Positions 9,595-31,506 of a stretch of DNA of 64,000 nt are shown piece by piece. Below the pieces are notes generated by a model that was not told the origin of the DNA, did not search any database, and saw nothing but the letters and a program-made list of their open reading frames with translations. Location: contig CAVOFT010000001.1 of NCBI GenBank assembly GCA_963695095.1, forward strand, positions 1,472,001 to 1,536,000. The letters run 5' to 3'. Source of the DNA: an uncultured bacterium (GTDB lineage: Bacteria > Krumholzibacteriota > Krumholzibacteriia > JACNKJ01). Position 1 is the stretch's first letter. Each line of letters begins with the position of its first letter. Both the position numbers and the translations under genes were made by a program.

Positions 9595-10122
9595 ATGAGC
9601 GCGATCCTGGGTACGCATCTCCTCGTCGGCGCGCTGGCGGCGGTTCTGGTCCTCGGCCTCTATCACGGCCTCCGCGGCGGGCTGATCCGCACGGCCTTCA
9701 AGCTGCTCGGCTTCCTCGCGGGCCTCTTGCTCGCGCGGCCCCTGGCCACGGCCATCCTGCCCCACCAGCCGGCTGGCTTCGACTTCCCGGGCAGCGGCAT
9801 CATTCTCCTCCTGCTCTGCTTCGCCGGCATCGCCGCCGCCTTCGCCCTGGTCGGCTGGCTGCTCGCCAAGAGCCTGAGCTGGACGCCGCTGGCCTGGCTC
9901 GACCGCGTGGGCGGCGGCCTGCTCGGCGTGTCGATCGGCGTCATCCTGGCGGGTCTGTTGCTCGGCATACTCGATCGCCTCGGCGCGGCAGGACCGCTGA
10001 TCGGCGCGGCTCGCGGCTGGGAGGCCGACTTCCTGCGCGGCCTCGCGGCCGTGTCGGCCGACCTCTTCGCGGCCGTCGAGCGGCTGGGCGGCGGCGGCCC
10101 GATCCCGCCGGGCGCGGTCTGA
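9595..10122 (+). CDS. CvpA/colicin V production family membrane protein
   Basis: GLRGGLI and LDRVGGGLLG motifs; four hydrophobic segments; precedes mutS2. Confidence 0.8.
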   Translation: MSAILGTHLLVGALAAVLVLGLYHGLRGGLIRTAFKLLGFLAGLLLARPLATAILPHQPAGFDFPGSGIILLLLCFAGIAAAFALVGWLLAKSLSWTPLAWLDRVGGGLLGVSIGVILAGLLLGILDRLGAAGPLIGAARGWEADFLRGLAAVSADLFAAVERLGGGGPIPPGAV

Positions 10123-12549: not shown

Positions 12550-14387
12550 CTAGGCCCGATCCCGGCGCTGCCCAGAGCGATTTCAAGGAGAAGGTGCGCG
12601 CGGCCACCGACATCGTCGAGCTGATCGGCCAGTACCTGAAGCTGCGCCGGGCCGGGAGCAACTGGGTGGGCCTGTGCCCCTTCCATCACGAGAACAGCCC
12701 GAGCTTCAACGTGAACCAGGAGCGGCAGAACTTCTACTGCTTCGGCTGCGCGAAGGGCGGCGACGTCTTCAGCTTCGTCATGGAGCAGGAGGGCCTTGCC
12801 TTCCGCGAGGCGCTCGAGCACCTGGCGCGGCGGGCGGGGATCCCCATCGAGGCGGCCGGGGGCGGCAGCGGCGAGAGCAGCCGGGCCGAACTCTATCAGC
12901 GCATCAATGCCGCCAGCGCCGACTTCTATGGCCGCCAGCTGCGCGAATCGCCGGCCGCCGAGCGCGCGCGGGACTACCTGCGCCGGCGCGACGTGGGCGA
13001 GGAGGCCTGGCGCGACTGGGGCCTGGGCTACGCCGGGCAGTCCTGGCGCGACCTCCACCAGCAGCTCGCCCGGCAGGGCTTCCCGCCCGAGCGCTGCGAG
13101 GAACTGGGGCTCATCCGCCGCAAGGCCTCGAGTCCGGGCCACTACGACGCCTTTCGCAATCGTGTCATGTTTCCTGTCCGCTCGGTGGCCGGGCGGGTGC
13201 TGGGCTTCGGCGCCCGCGTGCTCGACGACAGCCTGCCCAAGTACATCAACTCGGCCGACAGCCCGGTCTACACGAAGAAGGCCATCCTCTACGGCCTGGA
13301 CCGCGCCTGGCGGGAAATCCGCCGCGCCAAGCTCGGCATTCTCGTGGAGGGCTACTTCGACGTGATCAGCCTGCATCTGGCGGGCGTCCCCCTGGCCGTC
13401 GCCGCCTGCGGCACCGCCTTCAGCAGCGATCAGGCCAAGCTCCTGGGCCGCTACACCGAGCGGGTCTGCGTCGTCACCGACGGCGACGCCGCCGGGCAGA
13501 AGGCGGCGGTGCGGGCGGCGGGCGTGCTGATCACCGTCGGCCTCAGGCCCAGCGTGCTCGCGCTGCCGGCCGGCGAGGATCCGGACAGCCTGATCCGCGC
13601 CGAGGGCGGCGAGGCCTTCCGCGAGCGGCTGCGCGGGGCGCCGGATTACTTCGACTACATGCGCGGCCTGGTCAGGGCCCGCGGCGACAAGCCGGCCGAG
13701 CGGGAGCGCGCCGTGCGCCGGATACTGGAGGACTTGACCGCTTTCTCCGAAGGCGACCTGCGCCTGGAGAGCCTGCTCGAGGAGCTCACGGCGGCCTTCG
13801 GGGTCGAGCGCACGGTGCTCGTGCACACCCTGCGCGAGACGCGGCGCCGCGCCGGCGACGGCAGGCGCGGGGCGCGGCGGCCGCCCGCGGCCGCCGGCGA
13901 GGCCGAAGCCGCCGTCGAGGCGGGCAGCCCCGAGCAGGAGCGCCTGGAGAAGCTGATGCTGGCCGTGCTGCTCGCTGCGGGTCCGGAGCGGGAGACGGTC
14001 TTCAGCCTGCTGCGGCCCGAGCACTTCGCCGACCCCTTGCGCGCCCGGCTCTACTCCGTGCTGGCGGCCCTGGGCCGGGCGCCGGACAGCCGGGAGCTGG
14101 GCGAGCTGTTTCCCGACCCGGCCGCGGCGCGGGCCGTCACCGAGCTGACCTTCCTGCGCCTGCCGGCAGGAAGCGCGCAAGATTGGGTGCGCACGAGCGC
14201 CCTGCGACTTAAATTGAAGCGGATGCTCGACCTCAACCGCGACTTCCAGGGCCGGGTACAGGCCCTGGAACTGGCGGGCGAGGAGGTCTCGGCGGATCTT
14301 CTCGCCGAGTGGCGACACGTGGGCGAAGCCATTCGCGGCCTGCGGGCCGAGATCGATCGCATTCTCGAAGCACAGAAGGGGTCCTGA
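12546..14387 (+). CDS. dnaG: DNA primase
   Basis: CHC2 zinc finger CPFHHENSPSF...CFGC, FRNRVMFP, KYINS, VEGYFDV, DGDAAG, DPD; own SD GGGGAGG before GTG at 12546. Confidence 0.95.
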   Translation: MTRPDPGAAQSDFKEKVRAATDIVELIGQYLKLRRAGSNWVGLCPFHHENSPSFNVNQERQNFYCFGCAKGGDVFSFVMEQEGLAFREALEHLARRAGIPIEAAGGGSGESSRAELYQRINAASADFYGRQLRESPAAERARDYLRRRDVGEEAWRDWGLGYAGQSWRDLHQQLARQGFPPERCEELGLIRRKASSPGHYDAFRNRVMFPVRSVAGRVLGFGARVLDDSLPKYINSADSPVYTKKAILYGLDRAWREIRRAKLGILVEGYFDVISLHLAGVPLAVAACGTAFSSDQAKLLGRYTERVCVVTDGDAAGQKAAVRAAGVLITVGLRPSVLALPAGEDPDSLIRAEGGEAFRERLRGAPDYFDYMRGLVRARGDKPAERERAVRRILEDLTAFSEGDLRLESLLEELTAAFGVERTVLVHTLRETRRRAGDGRRGARRPPAAAGEAEAAVEAGSPEQERLEKLMLAVLLAAGPERETVFSLLRPEHFADPLRARLYSVLAALGRAPDSRELGELFPDPAAARAVTELTFLRLPAGSAQDWVRTSALRLKLKRMLDLNRDFQGRVQALELAGEEVSADLLAEWRHVGEAIRGLRAEIDRILEAQKGS

Positions 14388-14389
14388 GC

Positions 14390-16150
14390 GTGAGCAAGTC
14401 CAAGACCAGCCGCATCATCGTCGCCCTCAAGAAGCTCGTCAGCAAGAAGAACTACATCCTCCACGACGACATCTACGAGCAGTTCTCGGAGGACTTCGAT
14501 ATCGATGCCGTGGACGTGGTCTACTCCCGCATCGCCGAGCTCGGCATCGAGGTCTTCGACAGCGAGGAGGAGGCCAAGACCAAGCTGCGCGCCCAGGAGG
14601 CGCGGGCCAAGAAGCTCAACGAGAAGATGAGCCAGGCCGCCGCCCAGAGCATGCGCTACGACGACCCCGTGCGCATGTACCTGCGCGAGATGGGCAAGGT
14701 GCCGCTCCTGGACCGCGAGGGCGAGATCGCCATCGCCAAGCGCATCGAGGCCGGCAAGCACCAGGTGCTCGAAGCGCTCTTCCGTTCGCCCTTCTCCGAG
14801 GCCCATGTCGATCAGTGGGTGGAGGCCCTCGCGAACGGCACGCTCAGCGTCGAGGACCTGATCCAGGTGGACACGGGCGGCTACCAGGAGCACCACACGC
14901 CCCAGAAGCGGGACAAGGCCACGGCCGTGCGCACGCTGCGCCGCCTGCGCAAGCTGGGCGAGGAGATCCTGGCCTGCGAGGAGAAGCTGGCCAGGGCCGA
15001 CACCGAGCGCAAGAAGCAGGCCGCCGAGAAGGCCCTGCAGACGCGGCGCGAATCCTGGCTGGAGTTGCTGCACGGGCTCAGCCTGCAGCCCAAGCGCGTG
15101 GACGAGCTGGTCCTCGCCCTGCGCGAGGTGCACGACGAGTTCCAGGCGGCGGCCAAGCAGGTGCACCACTACGAGAAGTTCCTCGGCATGGACTACGATG
15201 GCTTGCGCGAGACCATCGCCCGCATGAAGGACCGCGGCTGGAAGAACATCCAGCTGCGCGGCAAGGGGCGCTGGACGCTCACGGCGCTCGAGGACCTGCG
15301 CCGCAAGCAGTACGGCCTGCATCCGCAGCCTCAAGACCCTGGAGAAGGAGCGCGGCGTCACCCGCGAGCAACTCGAGGCGCTGCTCACCCGCGTCGAGCA
15401 GGGGGAGCGCCGCGGCGAGCAGGCCAAGAAGGAGATGATCGAGGCCAACGTGCGCCTGGTGATCTCCATCGCCAAGCGCTACACGAACCGCGGCCTCGAG
15501 TTCCTGGACCTGATCCAGGAGGGCAACGGCGGCCTGATGCGCGCCGTCGACAAGTTCGACTACCGCAAGGGCTACAAGTTCTCCACCTACGCGCACCTGG
15601 TGGATCCGGCAGGCGATCACGCGCGCCATCGCCGACCAGGCGCGCACCATCCGCGTGCCCGTGCACATGATCGAGGCCATCAACAAGGTGAGCCGGGCCA
15701 GCCGCAAGCTCATCCAGGAGTACGGCCGCGAGCCGACCCCGGAGGAGGTGGCCAAGTACCTCGCCTTCCCCGTGGAGAAGGTGAAGAGGGTCATGAAGGC
15801 CAGCATGGAGCCGATCAGCCTGGACCGGCCCATCGGCGAGGACGAGGACAGCAACCTCGGCGACTTCATCGAGGACACTGCACGCCGACAGCCCGGCCTC
15901 ACTCGGCCGCGCACTCGATGCTGCAGGATCAGACTCACCAAGGTGCTGTCCACGCTGACCCGGCGCGAGGAGAAGGTGATCCGCCTGCGCTTCGGCCTCG
16001 GCGACGGCACGCCCGCGCACCCTGGAGGAGGTGGGCACCATCTTCCAGGTCACCCGCGAGCGCGTGCGGCAGATCGAGGCCAAGGCGATTCGCAAGCTCC
16101 AGCACCCCAGCCGCGCCCGCAAGCTCAAGGGCTACGTGGAGAACTACTAG
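14390..16150 (+). CDS. rpoD: RNA polymerase primary sigma factor (several frameshifts)
   Basis: [52 protein letters not shown], region 4 [10 protein letters not shown]. Confidence 0.96.
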
Positions 16151-16163
16151 GCGTCAGTCCGGG

Positions 16164-16194
16164 GGCGGGCCGGGCAAAGCGGCCCGCCAATCTT
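16164..16194 (+). terminator. Hairpin after rpoD (putative terminator)
   Basis: GGCGGGCCG-7 nt loop-CGGCCCGCC followed by AATCTT. Confidence 0.55.
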
Positions 16195-16233
16195 GATTAT
16201 TCGGTCGATTACTCGCTAATTATGGCCTATCCT
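16193..16233 (+). promoter_or_regulatory. AT-rich promoter region of the cytochrome accessory operon
   Basis: Locally AT-rich; TCGATT-17-TATCCT, with a second TTGATT upstream. Confidence 0.45.
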
Positions 16234-16302
16234 TAGTGGGCTCGAACCCGGACTCCGCACCCGGCGCCGCCCTCCGGGCGGCCTCGCGCAGCAACGAAGG
16301 CC

Positions 16303-18495
16303 ATGGCCAGCCCCTCCCGCCAGCATCTTGCGCTCCCGTCCCGCCTCTGTGCGCAGGGGCTGCTCCTGGCCGCCCTCGCCCTCGCTTGGCCCGGCAGCGC
16401 CCGCGCCCTGGACGGCAAGCTCGGCTTCCGCCAGAGCCAGCAGGATGGCGGTTTCGGCGCTCAGGACTACAGCCTGCAGGTGATCACCCGCGATGCCTAC
16501 GCCCAGCAGCTGGTGGGCCTCTGGCCGGGCCTGTCCCTGCGCCTGGAGGCCCAGGTCCGGGATGAGGCCACGCAGAGCCGGGTCGGCGCGACGAGCTCGG
16601 CCTGGAATCAGCTCAATCGGCGCGCGGGCATGGCCCTGCGCTACGGGGACCCGCGCCTGCATCTCGAACTCCGAGCCAGCGGCCGCCGCCGGGAACAGGA
16701 GCCCGATCCCGGACCCCGTCTGAGCCAGGACCTCGGCCAGCTCGGCCTCTGGAGCCAGCTGCGGGCCGCTCGCTGGCTTCGCCTGCAGGGCAGCTGGCTC
16801 GAGACGCGGGCCTGGCGCGAGGAGGACGCCCTCGCCGACGTGGAGACCCGCGAATCCCTGCGCTCGGCCAGCGCCGAGAGTCCGCTGTCGATCGGCACCC
16901 TGCGCTACGGCTACTCCCGACAGGCCACCGAGAACCTCGCCCGCGGCAACCTGAGCGTCCACGCGAGCCACCTCGTCGGCTACGACGGCGGCTTCGGCTT
17001 CCAGGACCAGCGCGGCCGGGTGTCCCTGAGCGCCCGCGCCCGCCGCTTCCAGCAGACCCTGACCCAGAGCGAGCTGACGGGCCGCCTCCTGCTCGAACCC
17101 GCGACGGCGGGCCTGCGCATCGACGCCTCGCCGGAGGTGGACGATCCCCTCGAGGAGCCCCTGAGCCTGGTGCCGGCGCTCATCGATCTGGATCGCCGCA
17201 GCGCCACGGTGGTCGATCTGGGCGACGATGCGCCCGTCGGCCTGCAGCTCGGCGGCGACTACCGGAACCTGCAAATCGATCTCGGCGCGCCCACTGCCGT
17301 GGCGGCGGTGCTGCTCTACGTGGACCGCCGTCCCACCGCGCCCCAGCTCATGCAGTGGAGCCTCTACGTGGCCGAGGATCCCGAGGGCCGCCTCTGGACC
17401 CGCCACGAGGCAGCCAGCGCGAGCGCCCGCTATCGAGACTGGGACGAGGACCTTCAGGGCTGGGAGTTCACCTTGCCGGGCGAGCTCGTCCTGCGCCACT
17501 TCAAGCTCGTCAATGCGAAGCTGGGACCGGTGGAGCCCGAGCTGCGGGTCACCGAGATCGAGGCCTACACCGCGGAGACCTTGCCCGCCGGCGAGCGCCA
17601 GGAGACGAGCGACAGCCAGCGCCTGCAGGCGGGCCTCGACTACCGGCTCAGCCAGGACTGGCGCGTACGGGCGGACCTCGCGCTTCGTCTGCGCAACTAC
17701 GCGACGGGGCGGGCGGACCAGGACGATCGCAGCGAGGGCCTGGGTCTCTTCTGGGCCCGGGACGTTTGGTCCGCCGCCGGTCGGCTGGAATGGCGCCGTC
17801 TCGAGAGCGGCGGCCAGCTCGACAGCGACGTCGACACGCGCAGCCTTTCGCTGCGGCGGCGGCTGGCGGGCCGCCACGCCCTCAGCCTGCACCTCGATCA
17901 GCTGGCGGACCGGGGCCGCGGCGCCGATCGCCGGTCCCGGACGATCAGCCTGGGCAGCGAGTGGCAGTTCGCCCCCGGCCTGCGCCTGGATCAGCGGCTG
18001 AGCCACGGCTGGCTGCGCGACGAGGGGCAGAGCTTGAGCTCGCGCTCGCTCACCTCCTACACGGCCCTGCACAGCGTGCCCTTCAGCTGGCTCTTCCTGG
18101 AACTCAGCCGCGTGGATCGCTGGGTGGAGCGGGAGGCGGGCTACGGCTACTCGCGCTTCAACGACACGACGCTCACCCTCGGCTGGACGCCGGTGCCGCT
18201 GATCAGCCTGCGCAGCCACGTCGTCTACCAGGACCGCGGCAGCGGCGAGTGGCTGGTCAACCACAGCCTGGCGTGGACGCCCCTGCCGGGCGGGGACCTG
18301 TCTCTGCGTTTGAACGCCAGCCAGTTCTCTGATACTCGTGTAGATTCCCGCCAGAACGGCGCGGGCGCGACGCTGGCCTGGACGCCGCGCCCGCGGCTGC
18401 TCCTGGAGACCGGCGTGGACGCTCAGCGCTATCGGCGCCCGGAGGGCGTCAGCTCGCCGGTGAACGGCTTCGTGAAGGGCAGCCTCGCCTTCTGA
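16303..18495 (+). CDS. Outer-membrane beta-barrel protein with an inserted discoidin/F5-8-like domain
   Basis: Signal peptide ending ARA; alternating amphipathic strands; C-terminal VKGSLAF; central NLQIDLG...HFKLVN...VTEIEAY segment. Confidence 0.65.
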   Translation: MASPSRQHLALPSRLCAQGLLLAALALAWPGSARALDGKLGFRQSQQDGGFGAQDYSLQVITRDAYAQQLVGLWPGLSLRLEAQVRDEATQSRVGATSSAWNQLNRRAGMALRYGDPRLHLELRASGRRREQEPDPGPRLSQDLGQLGLWSQLRAARWLRLQGSWLETRAWREEDALADVETRESLRSASAESPLSIGTLRYGYSRQATENLARGNLSVHASHLVGYDGGFGFQDQRGRVSLSARARRFQQTLTQSELTGRLLLEPATAGLRIDASPEVDDPLEEPLSLVPALIDLDRRSATVVDLGDDAPVGLQLGGDYRNLQIDLGAPTAVAAVLLYVDRRPTAPQLMQWSLYVAEDPEGRLWTRHEAASASARYRDWDEDLQGWEFTLPGELVLRHFKLVNAKLGPVEPELRVTEIEAYTAETLPAGERQETSDSQRLQAGLDYRLSQDWRVRADLALRLRNYATGRADQDDRSEGLGLFWARDVWSAAGRLEWRRLESGGQLDSDVDTRSLSLRRRLAGRHALSLHLDQLADRGRGADRRSRTISLGSEWQFAPGLRLDQRLSHGWLRDEGQSLSSRSLTSYTALHSVPFSWLFLELSRVDRWVEREAGYGYSRFNDTTLTLGWTPVPLISLRSHVVYQDRGSGEWLVNHSLAWTPLPGGDLSLRLNASQFSDTRVDSRQNGAGATLAWTPRPRLLLETGVDAQRYRRPEGVSSPVNGFVKGSLAF

Positions 18496-18521: not shown

Positions 18522-19154
18522 ATGATGGCATGTGAAGGGCGCGAGAAGGGCCGACCGGCCAGGGCAGGGCGCGCGCAGCCGGCAGGCGGCCGCCTGCTGC
18601 CGAGCCTGCTCCTGCTCGTGGGCCTCGCGTCGGCGCTGGGCGCCTGCGCGGCCTCCGTGACGAGCTACCAGCATCCCGGGGTGGATCTGAGCCACGTCCG
18701 GCGCGTGGCCGTGCTGCCCTTCGCCAACCTCAGCGGCGACGAGTTCGCCGATGAGCGGATCGCCTCGCTCTTCCTCACGCGCCTCTTGCGCGCCCAGGTG
18801 GTGGAAGTCGTGGAGGCGGGCGCCGTGCGCGAGGCGCTCATCGCCCAGCGCTTGAGCGCCGGCGCGATCGCCACGCCCGAGCAGCTGGTCGCCCTGGGCG
18901 CCGCCCTGGGCGTGGATGGGCTCTTCGGCGGCACCGTCGAGGAATGCGGCCTGCTGCGCAGCAACCGCGAGTCCCTCAGCCAGGTCACCCTGAGCTTCAC
19001 CCTGACGGAGACCCAGCACGGGGTGCTGGTCTGGCGCGCCCAGACCCACGCCTCGAGCGCCTCCTTCTGGCGCCGGCTCTTCGGCACCGAGGCGCGCTCC
19101 CTGCACGCGGTCAGCGCGGAGGCCGTGGACCGCGCCCTGGGCACCCTGTTTTGA
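18522..19154 (+). CDS. Lipoprotein of CsgG/DUF799 (GNA1162)-like fold
   Basis: Lipobox LGAC; RVAVLPFANLS, LGAALGVDGLFGGTVEE, GVLVW. Confidence 0.7.
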   Translation: MMACEGREKGRPARAGRAQPAGGRLLPSLLLLVGLASALGACAASVTSYQHPGVDLSHVRRVAVLPFANLSGDEFADERIASLFLTRLLRAQVVEVVEAGAVREALIAQRLSAGAIATPEQLVALGAALGVDGLFGGTVEECGLLRSNRESLSQVTLSFTLTETQHGVLVWRAQTHASSASFWRRLFGTEARSLHAVSAEAVDRALGTLF

Positions 19155-20260
19155 GCCTGCGCGCCGGCATCCTGCTCCTCGCGGCGCTGCTGATGGCGCC
19201 CGCCCTGACGGCGCCCGCTCCAGCGGCTGCCGAGACCGGCGGGCTGCCCGCAGCGGCGCTGGTTCTCTTCCTGGACGCGGAGAGCGACGCGGCCCTGCCG
19301 GCGGCGCCGGCTCTCCTGCGCGAAACGGCCCGACAGGCGCTGGTGGCGGCCCTGGCCGCCCCGGGCCGGCGCCTGTGCGCCGGTGACGAGGTGGAGGGCT
19401 TGCTTGCCGACGCGCGCGTGCGCTCGCGCCGCGGACTGAGCCGCGAGGTCGTGGCGGCACTCGGCGAGCGCTGCGGCGCCGAGCAGGTCATCATCGCGCG
19501 CCTGGCCTGCGGCCAGGGCAAGCTCTTCCTCGCCCTGCGCGGCCTCGCGGCCGCCGACGGCCGCCTGCTCCAGGTTGCCGTCGCCGAGCAGGACCTCGCC
19601 GGCGGCGAGGACTGGCGGCGGGCCATCGGCGATGCCAGCCTCGAGCTCGCGGCCCGCTGGCAGGAGCCGGCGCCGGATGCCGCCGCGGCCGGCCTCCTGG
19701 TGCTGCCCGCGCGGGGGCCGGGCGTCGATCCCCTGCTCCTGTCGCTCGTCGAGGAGAGCCTGCTCGCGGAACTCCTCGCCCAGGGGCGCTGGCGCATTCC
19801 CGATCCGGCCCTGCTGGTCAGCGCGCTGCGGCAGGCCGGCATCCATCCGGCCAGCATCGGTGCCGCGAGCCGGCGCGCCCTGGCCGCCGAGCTGGGCGCC
19901 GAGTCCCTGCTGCGTCTGAGCGTGAGCGAGTACGAGGCCGGCCTGCCCGGCGCCGGGCTGCGCGGCGCCGGCAGCGGGGACATCGCGGACGAGGACGGGC
20001 GGCGCGGTAGCGCTTCCCGGCGCCCGGGAGCCTCGCCGGCCGCGCGGCAGATCGGTCGGCCGCTCCTGGCGACCCTGGAGCTCGTGAGCGCGGAGAGCGG
20101 ACTGCTCGGCCTGGCCGCCGAGCAGTACCTGCCGGCGCTGTCGCTGCGCGGGAGCTTCGGCCGTGCGCGGCGGCTGCCCTGGGCCGCGCGCTGCGCGGAG
20201 TTGACTGCACCCCTGGCCGCCGCCTTCGCCGTCGCCAGCGCCCCCGGGGGGCAGCCATGA
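19151..20260 (+). CDS. Exported protein with two CsgG/TolB-N-like repeats
   Basis: TTG start overlapping the upstream TGA; signal peptide; repeated pattern (ALGERCGAEQVII / ALAAELGAESLL). Confidence 0.5.
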   Translation: MSLRAGILLLAALLMAPALTAPAPAAAETGGLPAAALVLFLDAESDAALPAAPALLRETARQALVAALAAPGRRLCAGDEVEGLLADARVRSRRGLSREVVAALGERCGAEQVIIARLACGQGKLFLALRGLAAADGRLLQVAVAEQDLAGGEDWRRAIGDASLELAARWQEPAPDAAAAGLLVLPARGPGVDPLLLSLVEESLLAELLAQGRWRIPDPALLVSALRQAGIHPASIGAASRRALAAELGAESLLRLSVSEYEAGLPGAGLRGAGSGDIADEDGRRGSASRRPGASPAARQIGRPLLATLELVSAESGLLGLAAEQYLPALSLRGSFGRARRLPWAARCAELTAPLAAAFAVASAPGGQP

Positions 20261-20316: not shown

Positions 20317-22036
20317 ATGCTCAAGCGCTCCCCGCCTGTCCCGCCTGCTGCCCGCAGCCTCCCTGCTGGCGCTGCTCCTGTCCCTGGCCGCGGCGCCCGC
20401 TCCGCAGGACGGCGACGAGCGGCTGCTCGCCTGGGTCAACGGCGAGGCGATCACCCTCGACGATCTCGAGGCGGAGCTGAAGCGGCTGCCGGCGCCGGAT
20501 AGCGCCGCCACGCCGCCCGCGGCCACCGCCGTGCTCCGGCGGCTCGTGCAGGATCGGCTGCTGGAGCAGGAGGGCTATCGCATCGGCGCCGATGGCGAGC
20601 CCGCCGTGCGCAACCAGGTGCAGGATCTCCTGCGCCTGCGCAGCGTGGTCGCGCTGCTGGACTCGATCTCCGCGCCGGGCGCCGAGGAGGGCGCTGCCGA
20701 ACTGGACAGCCTGATGAGCAAGGAGAGCCGGCTCATGCATCTGGCACACATCCTCGTGGCCGAGGAAGGCACCTCCCGCGCCTTGCTGGACAGCCTGGCC
20801 GCCGGCCTGCCCTTCGCGGACCTGGCGCGCCGTCACTCCACCGACGGCAATGCGGCCCGCGGCGGGGATCTCGGCTGGGCGGCCGCAGGCGCCTATGTCC
20901 CCGAGTTCGAAACCGCGCTGGCGCCGCTGGCGCCGGGCGAGGTGTCCGGTCCCGTGCGCACGGAGTTCGGCTGGCACCTGATCAAGCTGCTCGAGGTCCG
21001 CAGCGAGACGGTGGGCCAGTCGCCCGCCATGCGCGAGGCCATGCACAAGACCCTCGAGCGCGAGCAGCGCATGGCCGCCGTGCGCGACTACGTGGCCGGG
21101 CTCCGGGCGCGCTACGGCGTCGCCGTCGACGACTCGCTGCTGGCGAGCCTCGACTTCGGCAGCGAAGACCCGGCGGTTCAGGCCGGCCTGCGCGAGAGCG
21201 ACGCAACGCTGGCCGTGCTGCCCACGGGGCGGCTCACCGTGCAGGGCCTCTACCGGCAGCTCATCTTCAAGTACTTCCACGGGCTGGCCGGGCGCCCCGA
21301 GGCCGCCAGTCTGCGCGACAGGGTCTTCCGCGAGTGGGTGGACGAGGCGCTGCTCAGCCACGAGGCCCGCATCCTGGGCCTGCCCGAGCGGCCGGCGCTC
21401 CGCGCCGAGGCGAAGCGCCTGGAGCGCTCGCTGCTCCGCGAAGAAGTCCTGAAGACCCTGCTGCTCGGCCTCTCGACCGCGGCGCCCGCGGAGGCGGAGC
21501 TGACGGCCTTCTACGCCGCCGATCCCGGCCGCTTCGCCGCGCCGGCGCGCGTCAAGCTGCGCAGCTTGCGCTTCGCCGCGCCCGAGAGCGCCCAGGGCTT
21601 TCGCGCAAAGCTCGAACAGGGAGCCCAGTTCAGCTGGCTCGCCGCGCGCGACCCCGCCGTGCTGGCCGGGCCGCCGCCCTTCGGCGAGGACTGGCTGGAC
21701 CCGGCGACCCTCGACCTGCCGGCTGCAGAGCTCGTGGAGGGGGCCGTGCTGGGTCCGCTCGCCCTCGAGGAGGGCTGGGCGCTGATCCTGGTCCAGGCCC
21801 GCGAGCGGGTGGAGCCGCCGCCCTTCGCCAGCTGCCGCGCCGAGGTCCTGGCGGCCTATCAGCGGGAGCAGAAGCAGGAGGCCATCCGCCGCGCGCTGAA
21901 TCGGCTGGAGCAGGCGGCCACGATCACGATGCTGCCGGCGGCCGAAGCGCGCGTCGCCGCGCGCCTGGCGGCACTCGGCGGGGGCGGGGCGGGCGGCAGC
22001 GGGAACGGCAATCAGCCCAGCGGAGGTCAGCACTGA
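20317..22036 (+). CDS. SurA/PrsA-like parvulin peptidyl-prolyl isomerase chaperone (frameshift near 20330)
   Basis: LAWVNGEAIT, HILV, FADLARRHSTD, GGDLGW, SGPVRTEFGWHLIK; a second degenerate rotamase domain follows. Confidence 0.85.
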
Positions 22037-25000
22037 TGAAGACGCGTGCAATCCCGGCCCAGCCCAGCGCTCGCCGCGCGGGCTTGCTCGGACTCGGGGC
22101 CCTGATCCTGCTGCTTGCCGGCATCGGGCTGCCGCGGCCCGCGGCGGCGCCGGGCAAGGGTCTGGGCTCTCGCGACTGCCTGGACTGCCACGAGGAACTC
22201 AAGCGCGAGCTCGGGCGCAAGCATGCCCACGCGCCCTTCGCCGGCAAGGACTGCGAAGCCTGCCACAAGCCGCATGGCCTCATGGGGGGCCTGATCCTGA
22301 AGACCGAGATCAATACGCTCTGCCTGGAGTGCCACGCCGGCGTCAAGGACGCGCGCGAGGCGGCCGTGCTGCATGGTCCCTTCGCGAAGGGCAAGTGCAC
22401 GGACTGCCACGATCCCCATGGCTCGGGCGAGGCGGGGCTCCTGCCCGGCAAGGGCGCCGGGGCCTGCACCGGCTGCCACGACGGCGCCGCCTTCACGGGC
22501 GCCACCCTGCACGCGCCCCTGCGCGACGGGGATTGCGCGGCCTGCCACGCCGGCCATGGCGCGCCCGAACCGGGCCTGCTGCGCAAGCCGGCGACGGCGC
22601 TCTGCCTGGACTGCCACGCGGCCGACCAGGCCCTGCGCAGCCGCCATGGCGGCGTGGACGTGAGCGCGGCGGCCTGTGTCAGCTGCCACGATCCCCACAG
22701 TGCCGCGACGCCGGCCCTGCTCGCCCGCTCCATTCACCCGCCGGTGGCCGACCTCGACTGCGCGAGCTGCCACGAGCTGGATGCAGCCGGCCGCGTCTCG
22801 CCGAGCGGGGATCCCGCCGCCAGCTGCGCCGCCTGCCACGACGAGGGCGAGCGGCGACCGTCGGTACCGCACCCCGCCTTCGCCGACGGCGCCTGCACGG
22901 ACTGCCATTCGCCCCACGGCAGCAGTCAGCCGGCCCTGCTCAGGGATCGTGAGGATCGGCTCTGTCTCGATTGCCACGACGACCAGGGGCGGGACTTCGC
23001 CCGCGCGCACACGCACGCGCCGGCGGCCGCAGGCCGCTGCAGCGCCTGCCACGACGCCCATGGCGCCGAGCAGCCGGCGCTGCTGCGGCAGGAACTCGGC
23101 GCGCTCTGCCGGTCCTGCCATCAGGAAGCGAGCATCACCGCGGGCCCCGGCCAGCACGAGCACAGCGCCACGGCCAGGCGCGCCTGCACGACCTGCCATG
23201 AGCCCCATGGCTCCGAGCAGCCGCAGCTGCTCAACGCCCCGGCGGGCGATCTCTGCCTGTCCTGCCACCTCAAGATCAAGTTGCTCAACGCCTCCGCGCA
23301 TCCCCATGCCGTCGTGGCCAGCGGCGACTGCCTCGCCTGCCACGAAGCGCACGTGGGCACGACGAGCGCGCTGCTCAAGGCGGCGCCGGGCACGCTCTGC
23401 CTGAGCTGCCATGCCGACTTCGCCCAGGCGCCGGCGGGGGGCAGCGTGCATCCACCGGCGGCGGCGGGCGATTGCCTGGACTGCCATGAGCCCCACGGCG
23501 GCGAGCGGCCGGCCATGCTGAGCCAGGCGCCGGAGGCGCTCTGCCTCGCTTGCCACGACACCGGGGCCGGGCTGCCCGTGCCGCATGCGCCGGTGGCCGG
23601 CGGCCGCTGCACGGAATGCCACGATGCCCATCGGGCGCCCGGCCAGCACTTGCTGGCGGCGCCGCCGGCGCTGCTCTGCGCCGGCTGCCATGCGGAGACG
23701 GCGGCCAGCGAGGGCAAGGTCTCCCTGCACCCGCCGGCAGCGGCGGGCGATTGCCTGGACTGCCACCTGCCGCACGGCGGCGAGGCCAAGGGCCTGCTCA
23801 GCCAGGCGCAGCCGGCCCTCTGCTTCGATTGTCACGACGGCGGACGGCGCCGCCTTCCGCGGCGCCCACCTGGGCAGCGCGGACCCCGGCTCGCTGGACT
23901 GCATGGGCTGCCACGAGCCGCACACGGCCGCCGCGCCGGCGCTCATGCATGCCAAGGCGCACCCACCCTTCGCCGATCGCGACTGCCAGGCCTGCCACAA
24001 GGCCGGCGAGACGGCGGTGCCGCGGGGTGTCTGCCTGGACTGCCATGACGATCCCATTGCCGGCCGCAAGCACGTCCACGCACCCGTTGCCTCGGGCGAC
24101 TGCCAGGCCTGCCACAACCCCCATGCCGCCGCCGGTGAGCATCTCTTCGCAGGCAGCGTGGGGGAGAGCTGCTATGGCTGCCATGAGCCCCAGGCCCTCG
24201 CCCCGGTGCCGGCCCTCGCCCACGCGCCGCTGCGCGAGGGGCGCTGCGAGGCCTGTCACGACGGCCATGCCTCGAATCAGCCCGCGCTGCTGCGCCAGAG
24301 CGCGGGCACGCTCTGCCTGAGCTGCCATGCCGAGCTGGGGGACCCGGCTCAGGGCAAGGCCCATGCGCCCGTGGCCCGGGGCGATTGCAGCGTCTGCCAC
24401 GACGCCCACGGCAGCGCGGAGCCGGCCATGCTGAAGAGGGCGCTGCCCGGACTCTGCCTGGACTGCCATAAACTCGGCGCCGCGGGGATGTCCACCGCCC
24501 ATCGCGGCTTCGATCTCGCGGGTGCGGACTGCGCCGGTTGCCACGAGCCCCACCGCTCCCGGCTACCCGCCCTGGGCCGGCAGGGCTCCGTCCACACGCC
24601 CTACGCCGAGAGGCGCTGCGCCGACTGCCATGCCGGGAGCAAGGCGCCGGCGAAGCCCGAGCGGGAACTCTGCCTGGGTTGCCACCGCAGCCTCGGCGAG
24701 GAATTGAAGACGGGCCGCGTGCATCCGGCGCTCGAGCAGGGGGCGGCTTGCAGCAACTGCCATGTACCGCACGCTGCCGCCCAGCCCTGGCTGCTAGCCA
24801 AGGAGCAGGGCGCGCTCTGCGGCCGCTGCCATGCGGAGCAGCAGGACGCCCTGGCGAGCGCGGCTTTCGCGCACCCGCCCGGACCCCGGGGGCTCTGCGC
24901 AAGCTGTCACGACCCCCATGCCGAATCCACCGAGCAGCTGGGACCGACGCCCGAGCTCTGCAGCAAGTGCCACGATTTCAGCAAGCACGTGAGCCATCCG

Positions 25001-25156
25001 CTGGGCGCCGGCGTGCTCGACCCGCGCACTGGCGAGGAGCTGGGCTGTCTGAGCTGCCACGCCGCCCACGGCTCCGTCCAGAAGTACTTCCTCCTGGACG
25101 ACCCGCACGGACGGCTCTGCGTGCAGTGCCACACGGACAAGATCCGCAGCCGCTAG
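22036..25156 (+). CDS. Giant paired-CxxCH multiheme cytochrome c, 42 heme-binding motifs, ~1039 aa (frameshift near 23840)
   Basis: Signal peptide; 24 CxxCH counted before and 18 after the frameshift; repeat unit HxP..CxxCHxxH..LL..LCxxCH. Confidence 0.92.
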
Positions 25157-25185
25157 GGCGGAAGCGTTCGAACGATCGTACCCAA

Positions 25186-25214
25186 AGGGCCGCCTCCATC
25201 CCGGGGGCGGCCCT
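25186..25214 (+). terminator. Hairpin after the 42-heme cytochrome gene
   Basis: AGGGCCGCCTCC-ATCCC-GGGGGCGGCCCT; weak U tract. Confidence 0.55.
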
Positions 25215-25270
25215 CCCTATTAGCGCCGCAGCCCGGCTGCCTGGGGCCGGCGCGGGCACTTGCGCGGGTC

Positions 25271-25396
25271 TTCAGTGTCGTTTCATGATTCGTAAACTAT
25301 GTAATTTCAACGAACTGAATTATCGACCGAAGTGAGAGAATATGGATCCAAGATTAGATGATGTTCTTGACCGATATGATGTGAATTAGGTAACAT
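25271..25396 (+). promoter_or_regulatory. AT-rich regulatory region and promoter of the NHL-omcS unit
   Basis: Visibly AT-rich stretch; TTGACC-18-TAACAT (25367-25396); inverted repeat at 25271-25319. Confidence 0.55.
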
Positions 25397-25450
25397 ACAT
25401 ACCGGTCAGCGACGCTAACCCGCGCTGGTCCGAGGCACCGAGTACCGCGC

Positions 25451-26583
25451 ATGGAGTCCAGGCCGATGTCCAGCCGATCCATTGCTCGCCTGCTGCTCGT
25501 CCTCATCCAGGTTCCGCTCATCGCGATGCCCGCGGCAGCCACCTGGGTGATGGACTACGCGGGACAACTGTCACCGAATTTTCACGAGCAGGCCTGCAAG
25601 CGGCCCGTCGGGGTGAGCTACGCGCCGACGGGCGATGAAGCTCTGCGTCACCGATGCCGGCGAGCGCAGCCTGCGCGTCTACTCGGGCGAGGGCATCTTC
25701 ACCTTCGCGACCGGGGGCGTGGCCGAACTCGCACAGCCCGGCGACGCCCTGCTCGACGCGATGGGCGGCTTCGTGCTTCTGGACAGCCACAGCGGGCTCG
25801 GCCGCACCCTGCGCCGGCTGGACTATCGCGGCGAGCCGCAGGCCTTCAGCGTCGAGCGCCCCCGCGCGGACTGGAGTCCCCAGCATCTTCTGCTCACTCG
25901 CGACGGCGGCCTGGTGACCGTGGACAACGCGCACCGGCTGCTGTGCAAGCACGACGGCGCCAGCGGCGCCCTGCTCTGGAGCCGCGAGAGTTGTCGGCGG
26001 CCCCGAGGACGTAGACCGCGATCTGGGCCTGGGTCGTCCCGCTGAGACAGCCGATGGCCGCCTCTATCTGCCCAGCGGACTCCTGCACCGCGTGCTCGTG
26101 CACGACGGCGAGGGTCAGCCGCAGGGCGCGTTCGGCCGCTTCGGCTCCGCCCGCGGGCAGTTCGTCTTCCCCGTCGGCGTGGCGATCGGTCCCGAGGGCA
26201 CCGTGCTCGTGCTGGACCGCCTGCGCCATGCGATCCTGCTCTTCGATGCCGAGCAGCATTTCCTGGCCGAGTACGGCAGCTTCGGCGGCCGTCCGGGCCA
26301 GTTCTACCACCCGAACGCCATCGCCGCGATGCCCGATGGCCGCGTCGTCGTGACCCAGGGTTACCTGGGCCGCGTCCAGAGCTTCCGGCTCTACGACGCG
26401 AGCGAGCGGGCCGAGGCCGCCCACTCTGGAGCGCCGGCCTGGCCCTTCGGTCGCGAGCAAACCGTCACTCGCCACGATGTACCAAGGGGGTGCAGCCTTT
26501 CGGTGCCGGCAGCCGGCGCCAACCAAACGCATGCTATCGACTTTTTCCCGCAGTGTCTCCTAGTCCTGAACCCAACATCATGA
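25451..26583 (+). CDS. Exported NHL-repeat beta-propeller protein (two frameshifts, near 25635 and 26000)
   Basis: Signal peptide; FGSARGQFVFPVGVAI, GGRPGQFYHPNAIA. Confidence 0.8.
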
Positions 26584-26593
26584 GGTAACCGCA

Positions 26594-27697
26594 ATGAGAC
26601 TGTTCAAGCTCATGGGCCTCGCTGCCGCTCTGGTCCTCGCGTCCAGCGGCGCCGCGCTGGCCTTCCACGACGGCGGCGTCGCCGACTGCCAGGGCTGCCA
26701 CACCATGCACAACAGCATGGACGGCGAGCAGGTGGCCGACGTCGCAACCGGCAACGCGTACCTGCTCATCGACGGCAACTCCAGCGACACCTGCCTCAAC
26801 TGCCATGCGGCCTACGGCCAGTTCCTCGGCGGCACGGGCTACGGCCCGGGCGGCGACTTCTACTGGCTCACCAAGACCTACTCCTGGGATGCCCACGGCA
26901 GCACCGTGGAGAGCTCGGGCGACAGCCACGGCCACAACGTCATTTCGCCGGCCTATGGCCTGGCCGAGGACATGACCCTCAGCGAGGCCCCGGGTGGCGA
27001 CTTCCTGTCCACCTACCTGCGCTGCACGAGCTGCCACGATCCCCACGGCAACCAGAGCTTCCGTCTGCTCTACGGCACCGCCATGGGCCCGGTCTACAAC
27101 GGCGGCCGCTATGACTTCGACAGCGATGCGCCCGAGGCCAAGGGCAACAGCCGGCGCACCTACGTCGGCGGCGGCGGCAACGAGACCAACGCTCGCCACA
27201 CCGTCTACAAGTCGGGCATGAGCGAGTGGTGCGCGAACTGCCACACCACCTTCCACTCCGACAACACCAACAACTTCGTGCACCCCACGGGCGAGAACCT
27301 GGGCTCGACGATCGCGGCGGCCTACAACGCCTACATCAGCACGGACGAAGTGGTGGGCGGCGATCCGGCGACCTCCTACTGGGGCATCGTGCCCTTCGAG
27401 GCCGTCAACGTGGACCTGGAGACCGTCAGCACGACCAACAACACGCAGGGTCCGGGCGGCACCGATCAGGTGATGTGCCTGTCCTGCCACCGCGCGCACG
27501 CCTCGGCCTTCGGCGACGCGGGCCGCTGGGACTTCGGCGAGACCTTCATCGCGGAATCCCATCCCCAGCCCACGGACACCGGCTGGACGCAGGAAGACGC
27601 GGACAACATGTACTATGACTACACCTTCGTCCACAACCAGCGCTCGCTGTGCAACAAGTGCCATGTGAAGGACCTGGGTGATGCCCCTTTGGAGTAG
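26594..27697 (+). CDS. omcS: OmcS/OmcT-family hexaheme cytochrome c (nanowire-type)
   Basis: Signal peptide then FHDGGVADCQGCHTMHNS; CLNCH, PGGDFYW, GHNV, APGG, CTSCHDPHG, GMSEWCANCH, HP, YNAY, PFE, CLSCHRAHASAF, QRSLCNKCHVKD; six CxxCH in OmcS order. Confidence 0.92.
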   Translation: MRLFKLMGLAAALVLASSGAALAFHDGGVADCQGCHTMHNSMDGEQVADVATGNAYLLIDGNSSDTCLNCHAAYGQFLGGTGYGPGGDFYWLTKTYSWDAHGSTVESSGDSHGHNVISPAYGLAEDMTLSEAPGGDFLSTYLRCTSCHDPHGNQSFRLLYGTAMGPVYNGGRYDFDSDAPEAKGNSRRTYVGGGGNETNARHTVYKSGMSEWCANCHTTFHSDNTNNFVHPTGENLGSTIAAAYNAYISTDEVVGGDPATSYWGIVPFEAVNVDLETVSTTNNTQGPGGTDQVMCLSCHRAHASAFGDAGRWDFGETFIAESHPQPTDTGWTQEDADNMYYDYTFVHNQRSLCNKCHVKDLGDAPLE

Positions 27698-27771
27698 TGG
27701 TCACGGGAATTCCCCTCGGCTTCTAGCGAGGGGGCGGCCTTGAGGTCCCCGTGACCTCGATGGACATCTGG

Positions 27772-27801
27772 CGGGCGGCTCCGCGAGGAGCCGCCCGTTT
27801 T
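27772..27801 (+). terminator. Rho-independent terminator after omcS
   Basis: CGGGCGGCTCC-GCGA-GGAGCCGCCCG-TTTT. Confidence 0.85.
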
Positions 27802-27819
27802 CGTACCCACCCCTCGCGC

Positions 27820-27848
27820 TTGACGCCCGCGCGCGCAGCGCCTAGCCT
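27820..27848 (+). promoter_or_regulatory. sigma70 promoter of the tRNA gene
   Basis: TTGACG-17-TAGCCT, 8 nt before the tRNA. Confidence 0.65.
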
Positions 27849-27856
27849 GGGCTGAC

Positions 27857-27929
27857 GGGCCCATAGCTCAGTGGTGAGAGCAGACGACTCATAATCGTTG
27901 GGTCGCAGGTTCAAATCCTGCTGGGCCCA
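27857..27929 (+). tRNA. tRNA with CAT anticodon, most likely tRNA-Ile2 (lysidine); CCA not encoded
   Basis: GGGCCCA/TGGGCCC acceptor; GACGA-CTCATAA-TCGTT anticodon arm of ileX type; GCAGG-TTCAAAT-CCTGC T arm. Confidence 0.93.
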
Positions 27930-27960
27930 CTGGCCGTTCACCCCCTTTGTCGCGGTGCGC

Positions 27961-28671
27961 ATGCAAAACAGCGAGCAGCTCCTGGCCCTCTATCACCTCG
28001 ACCGCCGCCTGGACTTCATCCTCCGCCGTCTCGCCGAGATTCCGGGCGCGCAGCGCGCACTGCAGAAGGAGCGCGCGGTGCGCGAGGCGAGGCAGCGGGG
28101 GCGCGAGCAGGCGGCCGCCGAGCTGGTGGAAGCGCTCCGGCGGCTCGAACGGGACAGCGCGAGCCTGGCCGCCGAGCGCCGTCGCCTCGAGACCCAGCAG
28201 AGCGCGGTGACCGACATGCAGGCCCTGGCCGCCAGCGAGCATCAGCTGGCGCGCTGTGACGAGCGCATTGCCGGCGTGGAGGCGACCATCCTGGTCAAGC
28301 TCGAGGCCCAGGAGATCCACGAGCGGGAGCTCAGCTTGCGCGCGGCGCGGGAGGCCGAGGAGGCGCGCGCCGCCGCCGCGGAGCTCGCTGCCCTGGCCGG
28401 CGAGGCGGCCGAGTGCGCAGCGGAGCGGGACCAGGCCCTCGCCGAGCGCGAGGCCACGCTCGCCGCCATGCCCGCCGCCGACGCCCGGCTCTACCGGCGC
28501 CTCTTCGGCAACCATGGCCATCGCAGCCTGGCCGGCCTGCGCGGGGACGCCTGCGGCGCCTGCGGCGCCGCGCTGCCGCCCCAGGAATTGCTCGAATTGC
28601 GCAAGGACAACCGCGTGCTCAGCTGCCAGGGCTGCGGACGCCTCGTGCTGCGCGCGGAAGGGGAGGCCTGA
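27961..28671 (+). CDS. Coiled-coil protein with C4-type zinc ribbon (DUF164-like)
   Basis: Long coiled coil; C-terminal CGAC...CQGCGRLV; typical context before RNase H and rnpB. Confidence 0.85.
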   Translation: MQNSEQLLALYHLDRRLDFILRRLAEIPGAQRALQKERAVREARQRGREQAAAELVEALRRLERDSASLAAERRRLETQQSAVTDMQALAASEHQLARCDERIAGVEATILVKLEAQEIHERELSLRAAREAEEARAAAAELAALAGEAAECAAERDQALAEREATLAAMPAADARLYRRLFGNHGHRSLAGLRGDACGACGAALPPQELLELRKDNRVLSCQGCGRLVLRAEGEA

Positions 28672-29733: not shown

Positions 29734-31506
29734 TTGCAGCAGGCCCCAGCCCCGATCCTGCGCCTCCGCGAGCCGCCGCCGGCGGGCGAGGTCGAGTCCC
29801 TGGCCCTGGCGCTCGAGCTGCCTCGCGCCGTGGCCGCCCTCGCCTGGCAGCGCGGTCTGCGGGACGCGGCGGCCTGGCGCCTCTGGCGCGAGAGCGACCC
29901 CGGTCAGCAACACGATCCCTTCCTGCTGCCGGACATGGCGCCGGCCGTCGATCGCCTGCGCTTCGCGCGCGAGCACGATCAGAAGGTGCTCATCCACGGC
30001 GACTACGACGTGGACGGCCTCACCGGTGCCGCCCTCCTGCGCCGCGCGCTGCGCGGTCTGGGCCTGGCCGCCGAGGCCTTCGTTCCCCATCGCGAGCGCG
30101 ATGGCTACGGCCTTTCCCGCCGCGCCCTGGAGAACGCGGCCGGGGCCGGCTGCAGCCTTGTCGTCACCGTCGATTGCGGCTCCTCCGAAGGCGCGCTGAT
30201 CGAGGAGTTCGCCCTGCGCGGGGTGGACACCATCATCACCGACCATCACCTCAGCACGGAGCGGCCCGAGGCCCTGGCCTTCGTCAGTCCCAAGCGGGCG
30301 GCGAGTCGCTACCCCTACGCCGAGCTCTGCGGCAGCGCCCTGGCCTACAAGCTGGCCCGCGCCCTGCACGAGGCGCTGGGCCGGCCCCTGCCCGCCGAGA
30401 CCTGGCTGGATTTCGTGGCCCTGGGCACGGTGGCCGACGTCTCGCCGCTCACGGGCGAGAACCGCTTGCTGGTGATGGCCGGCCTGCGCGAGATGAGCCG
30501 CCGTCTCACGGCGCGCCCGGGCTCTCGCGCCGACCGCCATCCCGCCTGGCGAGCCCTGGCCCGCGTGGCCGGCCTGGAGGCCGGCGAGCTGAGCGCTCAG
30601 GATCTGGCCTACCGCTTGGCGCCGCGACTGAACGCGCCGGGGCGCCTCGGCTCCGCCCAGCTCGCCCTGCAGCTCCTGATCAGCGAGGACAGCGGCGAGG
30701 CCGCGGCCCTGGCCACCCGCATCGAGGCCCTCAATTCGCGGCGGCGCGAGCTGGAGGGCGAGATCACGGAGGCCGCCCGCGGGCAGGCCCGCGAGCGGAT
30801 GGCCAGGGCCACCGAGGCCGAGCAGGCGCTGGGCCTGCTCGCCCTGGCCGACACCGGCTGGCACCCCGGCGTGCTGGGGATCAGCGCCGCGCGACTCAGC
30901 GAGGAGTTCGGGCGGCCGGTGATCCTGGCCGGTCTGGACAGCGCGGGCGGCGCGCGCGGATCGGGCCGCGGACCCGAGAGCCAGACGCTCGACCTCAAGG
31001 CCCTGCTGGATGCCTGCGCCCGCCACCTCGAGCGCCACGGCGGCCACCGGCGCGCCGTGGGCTTCTCCGTGCGGCCGGGCGCCTGGGCGGACTTCGCCGC
31101 CGCCCTCGAGCGCGAAGCCCCGCCCTTGCCGGCGCCGGCGCCGCTGACCGCCGACCTCGTCATCGCGGCGGCCGAGCTGGACCGCCGCTTCCTCGACGGC
31201 CTCGAGCGGCTCGGCCCCTTCGGCGAGGGCAATCCCGAGCCGCTGCTGCTGCTGCGCGAGGCGGTGCCACTGGACAGCCGCGTCCTCAAGGGCCAGCACC
31301 TGCGTCTGGACGTCCAGGCGCCCGGCGGCGAGCGCTTCAAGGTGATGGCCTTCGGGCGCGCGGCCGCGCTGGAAGGGCGCCTGCATCGGGGCGTCGCCCT
31401 GGATCTGTGCCTGCGCGTGAGCCGGGACACCTTCCAGCGCGCGCCGGGCGAGCATGGGCTCGCCCTGCAGCTCGTCGACCTGGCTCCGGCGGGGACGGCG
31501 GCATGA
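29734..31506 (+). CDS. recJ: Single-stranded DNA exonuclease RecJ
   Basis: GDYDVDG, TVDCG, TDHH, LGTVADV, PRLNAPGRL, GGH, PFGEGNPEP; TTG start with SD GGAGGAG. Confidence 0.93.
   Translation: MQQAPAPILRLREPPPAGEVESLALALELPRAVAALAWQRGLRDAAAWRLWRESDPGQQHDPFLLPDMAPAVDRLRFAREHDQKVLIHGDYDVDGLTGAALLRRALRGLGLAAEAFVPHRERDGYGLSRRALENAAGAGCSLVVTVDCGSSEGALIEEFALRGVDTIITDHHLSTERPEALAFVSPKRAASRYPYAELCGSALAYKLARALHEALGRPLPAETWLDFVALGTVADVSPLTGENRLLVMAGLREMSRRLTARPGSRADRHPAWRALARVAGLEAGELSAQDLAYRLAPRLNAPGRLGSAQLALQLLISEDSGEAAALATRIEALNSRRRELEGEITEAARGQARERMARATEAEQALGLLALADTGWHPGVLGISAARLSEEFGRPVILAGLDSAGGARGSGRGPESQTLDLKALLDACARHLERHGGHRRAVGFSVRPGAWADFAAALEREAPPLPAPAPLTADLVIAAAELDRRFLDGLERLGPFGEGNPEPLLLLREAVPLDSRVLKGQHLRLDVQAPGGERFKVMAFGRAAALEGRLHRGVALDLCLRVSRDTFQRAPGEHGLALQLVDLAPAGTAA

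Follow-up and report, generated by a model that had tools for sequence, protein, structure and literature searches.

Does a run of 42 heme-binding CxxCH motifs that changes reading frame once, among genes resembling those that accompany the filament cytochrome OmcS in Geobacter, represent one very long cytochrome or two shorter ones, and what would such a protein be used for? The question is raised by positions 22036 to 25156 (plus strand) of a 64,000-nucleotide stretch of contig CAVOFT010000001.1 from an uncultured bacterium (this whole stretch is here called the window, and the assembly it belongs to, GCA_963695095.1, is called G000). As judged by sequence comparison, the window gene is a natural one-piece fusion of the OscI/GSU2495-type (26 hemes) and OscJ/GSU2494-type (16 hemes) cytochromes, and its single frame break is very probably an error of the assembly.

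Both halves of this fusion have known counterparts. GSU2495 is described as a protein of ~70 kDa with 26 hemes, and the eight-gene block GSU2500-GSU2493 is tied to the maturation and secretion of OmcS (PMC12977616); within this block, GSU2495 has been named oscI and GSU2494 oscJ (PMC13194489). A core formed by a peptidyl-prolyl isomerase (PPIase), a 26-heme cytochrome, a 16-heme cytochrome and a beta-propeller is also present in an operon of SEEP-SRB1 (PMC5539420), and the same core has been described as the OetABI conduit (PMC10553843).

One gene with 42 heme motifs

The features of the cytochrome gene are the following:

22036..23841, plus strand: 42-heme cytochrome, first frame (signal peptide without lipobox, hemes 1-24)
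23839..23843, plus strand: one extra base (frameshift) between hemes 24 and 25, likely an assembly error
23843..25156, plus strand: 42-heme cytochrome, second frame (hemes 25-42)
~23999-24031, plus strand: fusion junction, the His-free linker between hemes 26 and 27

The whole window was scanned in six frames. One plus frame carries 24 CxxCH motifs, from 22177 to 23821, and the next carries 18, from 23900 to 25118; the third plus frame and every minus frame are devoid of them. This reproduces the counts and coordinates given in the initial annotation of this locus (24+18 = 42 motifs at 22036-25156). The ATG at 22036 overlaps the stop of the upstream PPIase gene and the cytochrome stop is at 25156, the two halves adding up to 1039 residues (602 + 437); this corresponds to 24.7 residues per heme (23.6 if counted from the first motif), in line with the earlier estimate of about one heme per 25 residues. 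A signal peptide with an Ala-rich cleavage site and no lipobox cysteine can be read by eye in the first half only, and none follows the break, as had also been claimed. Both halves match the doubled-CxxCH family (PF09699/TIGR01905).

The proposal that the two frames belong to one protein is borne out by a genome of the same genus, G002, which served as the reference for frame comparison. Its cytochrome is intact (1034 residues, 42 motifs), is 66.5% identical to the window protein and stays in exact register across the break site, each half of the window protein being ~66% identical to it with every motif retained.

Correspondence with the Geobacter pair

It had been stated in the initial annotation that two large cytochromes near Geobacter omcS carry 16 and 26 hemes, and suggested that the window gene could be a fused or expanded equivalent of them; the alignments agree with these heme numbers and with a fusion, and leave no place for an expansion. 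In the Geobacter genome G345, whose OmcS is identical to that of PDB 6EF8 (407/407 residues), the 26-heme protein aligns to window hemes 1-26 with 35.6% identity and the 16-heme gene (10+6 motifs) aligns to hemes 27-42, both at a constant offset. The pair of genome G350, in which both genes are intact, aligns to the same two blocks with 37.9% and 38.4% identity, respectively, again at a constant offset. When the register was allowed to slide, the best start was heme 1 for 3/3 26-heme proteins and heme 27 for 2/2 16-heme proteins, neighbouring registers scoring only ~8-14% lower because the cytochrome is repetitive. An expanded GSU2495 was rejected, given a count of exactly 26+16 and a constant heme register, and so were two separate genes of 24 and 18 hemes, the natural split being at 26|27.

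The window protein therefore resembles OscI and OscJ of the G. sulfurreducens omcS-companion cluster (GSU2500-GSU2493) in heme number, order and spacing, with ~36-38% identity. The likeness extends to the signal peptide of the first part, which is of the non-lipoprotein kind in both (the G345 26-heme protein, like the window protein, has no Cys ahead of its first heme motif). The difference is that the window encodes one polypeptide, with an 11-residue linker in place of the second signal peptide, whereas the pair consists of two exported chains.

The oscJ-position gene of G345 (L131:1693-3030) is itself frameshifted near base 868 of the coding sequence, leaving 10 motifs in frame and 6 out, a position at which an oscJ frameshift between strains is listed in the literature (PMC13194489); the G350 copy is intact.

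The frame break

The frameshift that had been placed near 23840 corresponds to one extra base at ~23842, as seen both from the register against G002 and from the sole public contig to span the site (445 bases from run X2, depth 2.5), which does not contain it. Open reading frames (ORFs) were compared with G002 (168 candidates, 158 with matches, 139 kept). Frame changes appear in 16 of the 139 G002 genes aligned to the assembly of the window, 32 in 186.5 kb, rpoD accounting for three and the NHL gene next to the cytochrome for two; at a simple Poisson rate, ~41% of 3.1-kb genes would be hit at least once, with the proviso that errors cluster. Inside the window they affect rpoD (14309-16236), the NHL gene (25394-26583), a zinc-ribbon gene region (27898-28668) and a relA/spoT-like gene (31454-33702), the names rpoD and relA/spoT coming from a reading of the translations, and they point to an assembly prone to insertions and deletions.

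The alternative is that the frameshift is genuine in this strain, in which case its product would be cut short at 24 hemes and end in 68 residues read out of frame. Reads of the source strain were not found (three public runs contained 0.06-0.10 of the words), the bridging contig comes from another strain (18 differing letters in 445) and, at its low depth, may itself contain an error, and the defect in the homologous 16-heme gene of G345 indicates that genuine breaks may occur in this cytochrome family. Against this stand the frequency of frame changes just described, the retention of all motifs on both sides at undiminished identity to G002, and the position of the break, between hemes 24 and 25 and not at the 26|27 split natural to the family. 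We regard a genuine frameshift as very improbable and take the extra base, with high confidence, for an assembly error, because the G002 gene is intact, the bridging contig lacks the base, the assembly is prone to such errors and the break lies off the natural split.

In the same window, a 1421-residue ORF (10122-14387) reads by eye as MutS2-like and then DnaG primase in one frame, and could be either a true fusion or another such error.

Repeat anatomy and predicted fold

The cytochrome is built of a ~48-residue di-heme repeat interrupted by three hinge (tri-heme) modules, at hemes 7-9, 24-26 and 33-35. The variant modules reported earlier at hemes 8, 25 and 34 are real and lie just before these hemes, and the internal block duplications suggested on their basis are seen as well: with the heme motifs masked, block similarity among 23 proteins peaks at offsets of 17, 9 and 26 hemes (top scores 82, 75 and 70, against a median of 2 and a standard deviation of 19), therefore OscI and OscJ are themselves paralogous block duplications.

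Across 93 proteins, 41 His columns outside the motifs reach a conservation of 80% or more, and no Met column does; the window protein has a His past heme 36, in a linker where the family has no fixed column. Two His are found in the linkers after hemes 8, 25, 34 and 40, and no conserved His in those after hemes 9, 26 and 35, a placement that divides the chain into four ligand-balanced modules of 9, 17, 9 and 7 hemes. All hemes are thus predicted to have bis-histidine ligation, and no ligand is expected to bridge the 26|27 junction. The stretch that separates the motifs of hemes 26 and 27, 16-29 residues long, contains no His in 80/80 proteins, and in this it resembles the internal linker between hemes 9 and 10.

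An AlphaFold2 (AF2) model of the G002 cytochrome, whose pLDDT (per-residue confidence) is 70 and pTM (overall-fold confidence) 0.39, has a single significant Foldseek match, MtrA (6R2Q_A, E 1.9e-5), and 6R2Q chain A is also the best sequence match in the PDB. The window protein shares with this MtrA/DmsE decaheme family the doubled-CxxCH repeat (PF09699, TIGR01905), and passes the TIGR03508 cut-off only via 7 repeated stretches; it differs from it in having 42 hemes instead of 10, in its three tri-heme hinge modules and in its partner barrel, which is of the OscE/OetI family. The Mtr path is 185 angstrom long for 20 hemes (PMC8415449), and a purely arithmetic scaling of this value would give at most ~39 nm for 42 hemes, if straight.

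Spread and repeated joining of the two halves

The 42-heme fused form is a widespread family. Among 8000 scored candidates, restricted to lengths of 568-1810, 684 match the G002 protein at E<=1e-30. In the best 120 of these homologs, exactly 42 motifs occur in 79 and 26 motifs in 22; the 42-motif proteins make up 79/82 of the top-ranked full-length matches (P0004-P0085), and exactly 42 motifs are also found in 9/19 relative loci. Where a source label is given, it is Zixibacteria, Krumholzibacteria, Latescibacterota, FCB group or Gemmatimonadaceae. In the phylum of the window, 69 of 208 genomes match the second half of the cytochrome. For the 68 of these other than G000, the best match lies in an open frame of at least 1000 residues in 47 (one with an internal stop), in a frame of 400-470 residues, the split size, in 11, and is truncated or unclear in 10; in 25 of 30 fetched loci, a single frame that runs to the edge of the locus contains 38-39 motifs. 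Split 26+16 pairs are present even in the window's own family (L010, L018), and among 80 mostly Desulfobacterota loci they prevail (60 pairs, 4 42-heme fusions, 16 truncated or variant). By a simple pattern, a lipobox is found in 50/65 split 26-heme ORFs of these loci and in 4/4 Desulfobacterota fusions, and in 6/80 42-heme proteins of the homolog set.

Several related giants were also seen (P0010, P0088, P0104, P0109 and P0103), with 52 motifs in 1629 residues, 38 motifs in ~980 residues, or a 1217-residue fusion of a PPIase with a 26-heme cytochrome.

Quick trees of fused proteins and concatenated pairs (60 and 22 hand-chosen rows, many with odd composition) indicate that the two halves were joined or split repeatedly. 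The starred branches force at least three fusion/fission changes, and a fused clade (L069-L071, L097) and a single protein (P0029) nest within the split Desulfobacterota group, separately from the large fused group of FCB type. The hypothesis that all fused forms share one origin, as one clade, was rejected (approximately unbiased test on 22 rows, p-AU 1.9e-70). The join is always at the same His-free linker, between hemes 26 and 27. That the join recurs at this one linker is Rosetta-stone evidence, and the strongest point in favour of OscI and OscJ likely functioning together as a single heme chain, arranged head to tail.

A complex prediction for hemes 18-26 of the G350 OscI with hemes 1-9 of its OscJ scored 0.39, against 0.00 for the best control, with 0% contact agreement between runs and a partner pLDDT of at least 80; at scores of at most 0.60, the mark is reached by 18/157 solved complexes and by both passing mismatches. 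This lends weak support to an OscI-OscJ contact, and the signal may simply reflect the internal repeat.

Genes around the cytochrome

The neighbours of the cytochrome, all on the same strand, are:

16303..18495, plus strand: 730-residue outer-membrane beta-barrel of the OscE/OetI type, in which residues ~258-427 form an inserted beta-rich domain
18522..19154, plus strand: 210-residue lipoprotein-type gene of the OscF (GSU2498) type (31.7% identity, E 1.3e-25, to the syntenic G345 gene)
18944..20260, plus strand: OscG (GSU2497)-like gene (by position; profiles also match the syntenic genes weakly, at E 1.6e-4 in G350 and E 1.9e-3 in G345)
20531..22036, plus strand: PpiC-type peptidyl-prolyl isomerase/chaperone of the OscH (GSU2496) type (Pfam Rotamase; E 1.2e-14 to the syntenic G345 gene)
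25394..26583, plus strand: NHL/beta-propeller protein, OscK (GSU2493 position), split over three frames and a single open frame in G002
26594..27697, plus strand: OmcS-like hexaheme cytochrome, 367 residues (E 2.3e-53 to PDB 6EF8 OmcS)

Based on these matches, the cluster is of the osc/Oet type, its neighbours matching Geobacter gene for gene (weakly for OscG). The cytochrome is flanked as in the OscI+OscJ locus, with the PPIase upstream and the beta-propeller downstream, and the order barrel-lipoprotein-lipoprotein-PPIase-cytochrome-NHL is shared, as is the presence of an OmcS-like hexaheme gene, which lies downstream here and upstream in Geobacter. Unlike the Geobacter cluster, the one in the window has no GSU2500-like or GSU2502-like gene; GSU2502-like matches occur elsewhere in the genome. 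With the SEEP-SRB1 operon and OetABI, the window cluster shares the PPIase, 26-heme, 16-heme and beta-propeller core plus the barrel, and differs in that its cytochrome is fused and has no lipobox. Its host is likely of the FCB group, probably Krumholzibacteriota (from the homolog labels), and not a sulfate reducer. OetB, an outward-facing lipoprotein cytochrome that would correspond to the 26-heme protein (from the lipobox survey), has the N-terminal lipobox cysteine that the window cytochrome lacks.

The AF2 model of the barrel (pLDDT 78.8, pTM 0.70) has ~28 long strands, counted from the DSSP list, and its structural matches are all outer-membrane barrels, generic ones (root-mean-square deviation 6-13); MtrB is not among the 50 matches listed, an absence that carries no weight against an MtrB-type barrel. 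The syntenic 730-residue barrel gene of G345 gave no match by plain BLASTP or tblastn, and is matched by a hidden Markov model built without a Geobacter row (E 5.5e-12). The inserted domain carries most of the invariant residues of the family and is a candidate for the place where the filament or the wire docks. The OscF-type gene has a weak LpoB Pfam match, under the cut-off; the OscG-like gene likely starts near 19151, given its overlap with the upstream stop, and the PPIase frame is open from at least 20321.

The OmcS-like hexaheme protein keeps the N-terminal motif and 13/17 OmcS histidines, and is 45-46% identical to three G345 paralogs, slightly closest to the one at the GSU2501 position; homology cannot separate OmcS from its paralogs (PMC12977616). 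No terminator-like site was found at 24900-28000. A 12-bp GC hairpin without a T tail lies past the cytochrome stop (25186-25214), followed by an AT-rich stretch (25270-25400) with a sigma-70-like site at 25367-25396, and the NHL-omcS pair may have its own promoter.

What the fused cytochrome may do

We lean, by a modest margin, towards a wire: the fused cytochrome would carry electrons through the periplasm along one long row of hemes, linking the respiratory chain with the barrel/OmcS-like filament. The protein would be exported by the Sec pathway, lose its signal peptide and bear no lipid anchor, and is predicted to adopt an MtrA-like repeat fold in its four histidine-balanced modules, all bis-His. 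Its hemes would form one continuous chain, which might dock at the barrel-lipoprotein complex and pass electrons to or from the surface hexaheme filament, in either direction. The periplasm-spanning and OmcS-feeding roles proposed in the initial annotation are, like these steps, what we infer from the protein and its neighbours.

Several points weigh against such a wire. Small periplasmic Ppc cytochromes are reported to charge OmcS directly. In 17/69 phylum genomes with the cytochrome no OmcS-like match was obtained at E<=1e-30, which speaks against a strict tie to OmcS (conversely, the cytochrome is matched in 52/57 of the phylum genomes that have an OmcS-like gene, the kin among them not being independent), and in two of these 17 that were inspected (L137 and L138) the cluster carries other 5-7-heme proteins, mostly without an OmcS match. 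The structure prediction suggested earlier as a way to estimate length was run, and at a pTM of 0.39 it gives no reliable overall shape, length or straightness. The frameshift in the 16-heme gene of G345 may mean that the distal part is dispensable. In addition, the 26+16-heme pair is described as being without known function in cultured organisms, and four metal reducers are stated not to express it while respiring metals (PMC5539420).

Two other roles have to be considered. The protein could be part of a porin-cytochrome conduit, one end of the chain threading the 730-residue barrel as MtrA does in MtrB, so that one polypeptide would run from the periplasm to the surface. The MtrA-like fold, the large barrel encoded in the cluster and the published model of a conduit made of a periplasmic OetA, a porin OetI and an outward-facing lipoprotein OetB (PMC10553843) all speak for it; in fact, if this model is combined with the fusion of both cytochromes, the fused chain would have to cross the membrane. 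Set against it are the assignment of OscEFG to OmcS secretion (PMC13194489, citing Shen et al. 2025) and the absence of a lipid anchor in the window protein and in most fused forms. The barrel also has an inserted domain, unlike MtrB. We consider threading unlikely. An accessory role, as an electron store or as a redox/scaffold helper for filament assembly and not as the main conduction path, would fit the low or absent expression during metal respiration (PMC5539420), the broken gene of G345 and the assignment of other cluster genes to folding and secretion (PMC13194489). What tells against it is the nearly invariant heme number together with a register that is constant across phyla, which a fixed-length structure fits better than a plain capacitor, and we hold it to be improbable.

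Implications

The osc cluster and the 26+16 pair are already published, and the function of the pair is a question both in Geobacter nanowire biology and in methane-seep syntrophy. No description of the fused 42-heme form was found in the literature searched, and Shen et al. 2025, outside that search, may show it. What this analysis adds is that the fusion recurs at a linker free of ligands, and that this restricts the topology open to the OetABI model: the natural joining fixes the topology, with the C-terminus of OscI beside the N-terminus of OscJ, in one compartment or along one continuous path. More tentatively, the osc/Oet cytochromes might be the halves of a fixed-length 42-heme cable (at most ~39 nm) that wires the inner membrane to the base of an OmcS-type filament and was cut or joined several times at the ligand-free linker. 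The FCB version would then be the longest single-chain envelope wire of the family, and the model placing the two cytochromes on opposite sides of the membrane would be overturned unless the barrel is threaded; we put this forward as a possibility of which we are doubtful. Forty-two hemes are no record, since 61, 86 and 113 motifs have been cited (PMC13013709, PMC12133095, PMC11492766). The natural fusion also offers a single chain on which structure and conduction could be tested directly, and its distribution extends OmcS-type clusters across an uncultured phylum, likely of the FCB group.

Further multiheme genes lie elsewhere in G000. Two OmcS-like genes are found outside the cluster (C1:3043630-3044850 and C2:23360-24361, C2 being a second contig of 28.9 kb), together with an adjoining pair of 20 and 16 motifs (C1:1613601-1616440), an 18-motif gene (C1:3213951-3215303) and a cluster with 17, 5 and 11 motifs (C1:3480596-3486720).

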